Of a DNA stretch of 64,000 nt, positions 29,458 to 29,555 are shown piece by piece. How positions within the stretch are numbered: position 1 is the stretch's first letter; every line of letters begins with the position of its first letter. The translations under genes were made by a program, and so were the position numbers. The notes under the pieces were generated by a model. That model was not told the origin of the DNA. It worked only from the letters and a program-made list of their open reading frames with translations, and ran no database searches. Source of the stretch: Octopus vulgaris (taxonomy: Eukaryota); NCBI GenBank assembly GCA_951406725.2, contig OX597831.1, positions 41,664,001 through 41,728,000 on the forward strand, in the 5' to 3' direction.

Positions 29458-29555
29458 TTCTCAGTTCTATGGGAATAGTACAGATGTCACTCAAAATTAC
29501 TATATAAAGGGCCTTATATCCTGCTTTTGACAAACCACATCTTGTGCACATTTCA
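29458..29555 (+). promoter_or_regulatory. Gene A promoter and short non-coding exon 1: TTCTCA..TGGGAA (29470), CAGATG (29481), TATATAAA (29501), donor at 29556
   Basis: Motif order and spacing are conserved in all three paralogs. Donor tttca|gtaag lies about 50 nt after the TATA box. Confidence 0.8.

Follow-up and report, generated by a model that had tools for sequence, protein, structure and literature searches.

The peptide genes and their family

The window considered here, i.e. the whole stretch of 64,000 nucleotides (nt) of Octopus vulgaris DNA that was analysed (contig OX597831.1, positions 41,664,001 to 41,728,000; G000:C18:41664001-41728000), contains three related genes, A, B and C, for small cysteine-rich peptides. 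Just upstream of the TATA box of each lies a composite element, in which a hexamer resembling the core site of the transcription factor CSL (RBPJ, Su(H)) is followed by an E-box, an arrangement reminiscent of the site bound in vertebrates by PTF1, the complex of Ptf1a, an E-protein and CSL. The element, the family of genes that carries it and the factors that may read it form the subject of this study; coordinates are collected in Table 1.

DNA searches revealed five further copies, D to H, near the cluster, and more distant copies, I, J and K on C18 and L and M on C8, were reached via relatives found in a profile search of proteins, seven of the 13 matches in which were clear relatives (from O. 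bimaculoides, Argonauta and O. vulgaris). The named relatives are octopod without exception, with labels that are merely hypothetical or uncharacterized; word-index homologue searches with exon 3 gave no match. In a tree built from exon 2, A to H are set apart from I, J/K and L/M, with support that is mostly moderate. Exon 2 encodes a signal peptide, an acidic pro-region and, in most members, a KR site, exon 3 encodes the framework C-x3-C-x9/11-C-x3-C, and exon 4 is short. Exon 1 would appear to be short and non-coding, the TATA box being followed by a GT donor about 50 nt on, because the ATG sits 2 nt past the acceptor AG, and TATA box and donor are both conserved. The donor of exon 3 shares bases with an in-frame TAA throughout the family (34554-34559, 50919-50924 and 62954-62959 in the window), implying that retention of the intron would end the peptide right after its last cysteine; database entries for the family include short as well as tailed forms.

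The products may be likened, as we take it, to cysteine-stabilised helix-loop-helix peptides such as the framework-XIV conotoxins, with which they share the C-x3-C-x9/11-C-x3-C spacing and predicted helices. They differ from these in that no sequence or fold match was obtained: the Pfam Conotoxin family was reached by one of four family proteins, in a match (E=0.19) that falls short of the cut-off, and searches of family peptides against ESM Atlas, by PDB sequence and with Foldseek gave nothing usable.

The composite element in genes A, B and C

The pattern TGRGAA-N5-CANNTG matches exactly three times in the window, always on the plus strand and each time in the promoter of one of the three genes, as against a mean of 0.25 matches in shuffled windows, two in 100 of which reached three. 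The original prediction, made from the letters of the window, was correct as to these sites and as to a TATA box 14-21 nt past the E-box (it starts 14, 15 and 21 nt after it in A, B and C, respectively). Two other parts of that prediction held in these three genes but not beyond them. The spacer, said to be fixed at 5 nt, is so in A to C but ranges from 4 to 6 nt across the family, while an inverted TTCTCA 6 nt upstream of the hexamer is indeed present in all three (starting at 47594 and 61482 in B and C) but is not conserved, one of its six columns staying invariant among paralogues; it was rejected as likely no part of the element.

With this inverted copy, A to C have two CSL-like hexamers near the E-box, in which they resemble the Su(H)-paired site. 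That assignment was rejected on geometry: the paired site is head-to-head, with about 16 nt between its halves (PMC6033939), whereas the octopus pair points apart across a gap of 6 nt and has not been kept in D to H. DNA of another organism running across the promoter of gene C differs at five positions, none of them in the motif, and is too close to inform.

Conservation among alignable paralogues

So as to avoid circularity, columns of the promoter alignment that are invariant in A to C were selected and then scored for invariance in D to H, background columns with more than two gaps being left out. Nine of the ten motif columns remain invariant across all eight paralogues, compared with 56 of 135 background columns (Fisher p=0.003), bearing out the claim that hexamer and E-box are better conserved than their flanks. 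The corresponding figures are 5/6 for the TATA box, 6/7 for the splice donor, 0/1 for the spacer and 21/44 for intron 1 (motif versus intron 1, p=0.016), and the minimum number of changes per column is 0.1 for the ten motif columns, 1.2 for the spacer and 1.16 for the background. Judged by these alignments, the CSL hexamer and the E-box are under constraint.

Beyond A to C the strict N5 pattern occurs in four of ten paralogues, as exact proximal matches in D and E and as distal ones in F and H; in the latter two the proximal spacer is 4 nt, and a perfect TGGGAA-N5-CAGCTG stands 88 nt upstream. Over the 204 kb around the cluster, all seven N5 matches and both N4 matches fall in the promoters of A to H.

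Promoters that no longer align

BLASTN found no similarity between the promoters of I to M and those of A to H. Gene I has TGAGAA-N6-CATCTG 15 nt before TATAAA, while the sequence in L and M is AGGGAA-N6-CATCTG, followed after 9 nt by a TATA variant, the two having different spacers; the opposite strand of L and M reads E-box, 5 nt, TTTCCC, which is the TC-box form given in PMC2586380. A third promoter and exon 1 of the J/K type is present at G000:C18:42048381 (minus strand), with no matching exon 2 in the fetched region.

Taking the family as a whole, an E-box CANNTG is found in 11 of 13 genes (as CAGATG, CAGCTG or CATCTG), the sequence in the other two, J and K, being CATAAG. The other box, read on the opposite strand, is exactly TTTCCC in two of the 13 (L and M), TTCCCA in A and in distal F and H, and TTCTCA, a CSL-compatible variant, in B to F and H to K. 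The hexamers are 4-6 nt apart, equivalent to 10-12 bp from centre to centre, in all 13 genes, and their orientation is constant and the same as in vertebrate PTF1 sites; such changes as do occur mostly stay inside one binding code (TGGGAA/TGAGAA; CAGATG/CAGCTG/CATCTG). A relaxed composite, defined after I, L and M had been seen, was found just upstream of TATA-like sites in 11 rows, representing eight places, among 9276 (1.33 Mb of fetched DNA); family promoters account for seven of these places, and the eighth had been fetched for matching a related pattern.

One further feature was missed by the original prediction. All 13 family genes, spanning four promoter lineages, have a GATA site (WGATAR) upstream of the CSL hexamer, at a distance of 41-93 nt, the background for WGATAR being 0.125 per 57-nt window and 0.25 per 130-nt window. 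In pancreas, Ptf1a co-binds with GATA (PMC8431614, PMC10553828).

Genes for the PTF1 subunits

A Pfam HLH search of the genome gave 41 matches. Among the genes encoded is a Ptf1a, which shows 100% identity to a database entry named pancreas transcription factor 1 alpha-like and retains HSLSW and W-x-PED in alignment with fish, echinoderm, arthropod and mollusc Ptf1a; a second Ptf1a-like gene, again with both tryptophan motifs, is 250 kb away. The pair is situated at G000:C9:85.36 Mb and 85.61 Mb, flanking on its two sides a region in which other basic helix-loop-helix (bHLH) genes are found. A bHLH at C18:45.32 Mb is presumably E-protein-like, and another in the genome we take to be Mist1/Dimmed-like. 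There is one CSL gene, at C25:43.37 Mb, later exons included; an RBPJL paralogue was not found, PF09271 being present in three of 11 scored candidates, all three of which are one gene. Residue W298 of Ptf1a maps to the second tryptophan motif. The mouse Ptf1a mutant W298A fails to bind Rbpj (PMC9545688), and sea urchin Ptf1a with mammalian partners activates a rat PTF1 element (PMC4880809).

Autoregulation of Ptf1a was considered and rejected, a single intronic N5 site in the 53.7 kb of its locus and none in the 44.6 kb of the second gene being chance level.

Interpretation

Our preferred reading, which we hold to be probable rather than assured, is that the element is a PTF1-like promoter module preserved by selection, to which Ptf1a/E-protein/CSL likely bind. 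What survives of the PTF1-type site originally proposed is the hexamer and E-box, which are conserved and outlast alignment, together with the encoded Ptf1a, CSL and E-protein-like genes; what does not is the fixed spacer and any role for TTCTCA. According to this scheme a Ptf1a/E-protein dimer would occupy the E-box and, via the C-terminal tryptophan motifs of Ptf1a, would hold CSL on the adjacent weak site about one helical turn off, independently of Notch. GATA would help the promoter to open, and the TATA box, 9-21 nt downstream, would fix the start of the short non-coding exon 1. In F and H, loss of one base from the proximal spacer, leaving 4 nt, would be offset by the perfect 5-nt copy upstream. 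The trimer would then activate these genes in some of the secretory cells of the salivary gland, and the element would probably work like a PTF1-J site; the RBPJL paralogue that characterises the acinar complex, PTF1-L, was not found.

As to tissue, the protein A0A0L8GWF6, which is 86-88% identical to the exons of gene I, was detected through one peptide and two spectra in a published proteome of the octopus posterior salivary gland, where it forms protein group 23 (PMC7693380, Table S1). Taken with the promoters, this suggests that some cells of the octopus salivary (venom) gland likely use a pancreas-related switch.

Several observations must be set against this reading. Since the promoters of A to C are paralogous, with a mean column identity of 75%, their three matches are not independent events, and the count cannot separate function from shared descent. 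Gene G has TGAGAG, a one-mismatch hexamer, and J, K and the orphan promoter copy have TGAGAA-N5-CATAAG, in which the E-box is broken. The salivary detection consists of one peptide from the orthologue of gene I in a whole-gland homogenate, and in the part of the PMC7693380 supplement that was examined three of four family accessions are absent, as is the term 'pancreas transcription', while two short peptide motifs have no match among the few sequences given there.

Genome-wide scans, covering 2.8 Gb, gave 16 places for the N5 pattern with a TATA box (five in the family) and likewise 16 for an N8 control, i.e. no excess, and the 11 non-family places resemble repeats or chance. The reverse orientation with a TATA box gave 34 places versus 18 for a backwards control; of 30 loci inspected one looks like a true promoter, and two of the four remaining rows are trypsin-clade promoters. 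Of twelve other protease promoters 11 lack the site even at one mismatch (the one carrier is a related promoter), none of five CAP genes has it (some CAP starts and first exons being uncertain), and the trypsin in the PMC7693380 supplement matches a clade on C10 whose promoter is without the site. For the trypsin-like clade divided between C25 and C6 the picture is mixed. CAGCTG stands shortly before the TATA box in 20 of 22 promoters, with a TC-rich stretch after it, and is invariant among ten non-redundant aligned rows, and the composite is present at up to one mismatch in 16/22 (background 4.8% per 400 nt). However, exact composites number 2/22 (background 0.4% per 400 nt), the 3' half of the hexamer varies, and one such clade among about ten, at a background of 4.8%, is not significant.

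The expectation of a gland-wide signature was not borne out, and of the proposed salivary or exocrine programme what stands is the presence of one member in the posterior salivary gland proteome. The module is no universal salivary code; it may instead mark one gland cell type. More tentatively, and at rather less than even confidence, Ptf1a/E-protein/CSL plus GATA might, independently of Notch, be an ancestral bilaterian secretory-cell code, used by octopods in one venom-gland cell type for the peptides and one trypsin clade.

Two side observations belong with these scans. The promoter-like locus in reverse orientation (L186, G000:C2:40384357, minus strand) has CAGCTG-N3-TTTCTCA, a TATA box and a short exon with a donor, and lies upstream of a gene in which cysteine-rich exons are repeated, making it a candidate further target. 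The trypsin-like genes are compact and occur in both orientations in large tandem arrays (G000:C25:20.45-20.65 Mb and C6:115.16-115.34 Mb).

Alternative explanations

The alternative that survives best, unlikely as we judge it to be, is that the two halves are bound separately, with no trimer: a bHLH dimer (Ptf1a/E or Mist1/Dimmed-like) on the E-box, and CSL alone on a Notch-responsive or default repressor site. This would accommodate the variation in spacer length, the retention of the hexamer in J and K despite their broken E-box, and the trypsin clade, where the E-box is kept and the hexamer is loose, and a presumed Mist1/Dimmed-like bHLH is indeed encoded. It sits poorly, however, with the spacing of about one turn and constant orientation in all 13 genes. 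Moreover, the consensus for a stand-alone CSL site is YGTG(G/T)GAA (PMC6033939), which none of the 13 proximal sites matches in full, the G before the hexamer being found in 0/13; weak CSL sites at one-turn spacing favour cooperative, Notch-independent binding.

A true PTF1-type site put to neuronal or neurosecretory use, the peptides being neuropeptide-like rather than exocrine, seems to us distinctly improbable. The KR site in the precursors would suit such a role, and the proteome is one of whole gland, but gland products typically show fast tandem expansion and fast divergence of the mature part, as this family does. PTF1 does work together with RBPJ in neurons of vertebrates (PMC7197352, PMC5576485), and in placozoans Ptf1a is a marker of peptidergic progenitors (PMC10580291); against this, a family member was detected in the salivary proteome (PMC7693380), and GATA is a pancreatic, not a neural, co-factor (PMC8431614).

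There is little to recommend a functional site whose hexamer is read beside the E-box by some other factor, such as the Ets, NFAT or Ikaros-like GGAA binders. GGAA does lie inside TGGGAA or AGGGAA in A, L, M and distal F and H, but most copies are TGAGAA, which is without GGAA and suits CSL. Lastly, a motif without function, common only through recent duplication and picked out post hoc, might be argued from the resemblance of the A to C promoters, the strict pattern in just four of ten unseen paralogues and the absent genome-wide excess, but is largely refuted and most improbable, given motif columns constrained like the TATA box and splice donor, above the flanks, and an arrangement that outlasts promoter alignability in I to M.

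Comparison with known systems

The vertebrate PTF1 site, which turns on digestive-enzyme genes from the promoters of pancreatic acinar cells and is read by Ptf1a and an E-protein with RBPJ or RBPJL, comprises an E-box and a TC-box about one helical turn apart (PMC2586380, PMC7197352, bioRxiv 2020.12.02.409003), a gap of 5 nt being termed one turn (bioRxiv 2020.12.02.409003). The octopus promoters are similar in having the two boxes about one turn apart near a secretory-gene promoter, with GATA nearby, and the tryptophan motifs of Ptf1a are conserved. They are unlike the vertebrate system in that the octopus is a protostome, the targets are small cysteine-rich peptides, the box is mostly TTCTCA (exactly TTTCCC in L and M only), and one CSL gene was found, with no RBPJL-like paralogue, alongside two Ptf1a-like genes.

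Pancreatic exocrine-like cells of the sea urchin express Ptf1a and have predicted bipartite sites in digestive-enzyme promoters (PMC4880809, PMC9437490), and the octopus likewise combines an invertebrate Ptf1a with bipartite sites in promoters of secretory genes. In the sea urchin, however, these are gut cells of a deuterostome, whereas the octopus tissue evidence points to the salivary gland, and the sea urchin sites come from a matrix scan, whereas those of the octopus are backed by conservation among paralogues.

Other features of the window and family

Table 1 Features of genes A, B and C, by position in the window.
Feature	Position	Strand	Remarks
Gene A distal near-match	29339..29356	+	TTGGAA-N6-CAGGTG; same position as perfect F/H copy
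Gene A GATA site	29377..29382	-	WGATAR (TTATCT on +)
Gene A inverted TTCTCA	29458..29463	-	not conserved in paralogues D-H
Gene A composite	29470..29486	+	TGGGAA, 5 nt, CAGATG
Gene A TATA box	29501..29507	+	inferred exon-1 end at GT donor 29556
Gene A exon 2	30620..30709	+	ATG at 30622, signal peptide, acidic pro-region, KR site
Gene A exon 3	34441..34555	+	helix + C-x3-C-x11-C-x3-C
Gene A exon 4 (inferred)	37635..37719	+	short tail, stop 37657-37659, AATAAA 37714; paralogous exon-4 matches
Gene B GATA site	47536..47541	-	WGATAR
Gene B composite	47606..47622	+	TGAGAA, 5 nt, CAGCTG
Gene B TATA box	47638..47644	+	inferred exon-1 donor 47689
Gene B exon 2	49511..49600	+	signal + pro-region
Gene B exon 3	50812..50920	+	C-x3-C-x9-C-x3-C
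Gene B exon 4 (inferred)	53874..53954	+	short tail, stop, AATAAA
Gene C two GATA sites	61419..61439 (61419-61424, 61434-61439)	-	WGATAR
Gene C composite	61494..61510	+	TGAGAA, 5 nt, CAGATG
Gene C TATA box	61532..61538	+	inferred exon-1 donor 61584
Gene C exon 2	61974..62063	+	signal + pro-region
Gene C exon 3	62841..62955	+	gene C exon 4 beyond window end

Intron 1 of gene A contains a partial copy of 18S ribosomal RNA, from its 3' end (30210-30400, minus strand; Rfam RF01960), scoring 48.2 bits, slightly below the gathering score of 50, with E=6e-12. A tandem array with a 139-bp unit (59500-61155; 11.9 copies within the scanned range, 97% matches) stops about 340 nt short of the gene C element, and one isolated unit related to it is found near 47330-47430, upstream of gene B. 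Outside the window, gene D (G000:C18:41742200-41743260) has a distinct promoter and exon 2 but differs little from E and G in late intron 2 and exon 3, which makes it look chimeric and suggests gene conversion. Gene H has an insertion, some 30 nt upstream of its distal element, of what was recognised by eye as mariner-like transposase sequence (L010:1-1080).

Implications

The literature searched, which left subscription papers mostly outside, does not link Ptf1a with a venom gland or a mollusc salivary gland, nor, among the matches listed and as judged by title or opening of the abstract, with a cephalopod gland. If the more tentative reading, that of an ancestral bilaterian code, is true, protostomes and venom glands would each gain in this element their first cis-regulatory sign of PTF1, and venom-gland cells would be tied to pancreatic acinar cells through promoter syntax. 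It is an open issue if the similar gene sets of venom glands arose by convergence or through reuse of an old exocrine programme. The promoters, at about 130 bp, amount to a set of natural variants that bear on it, with spacers of 4, 5 and 6 nt, a hexamer altered at one base, an E-box that is broken and a site present twice.
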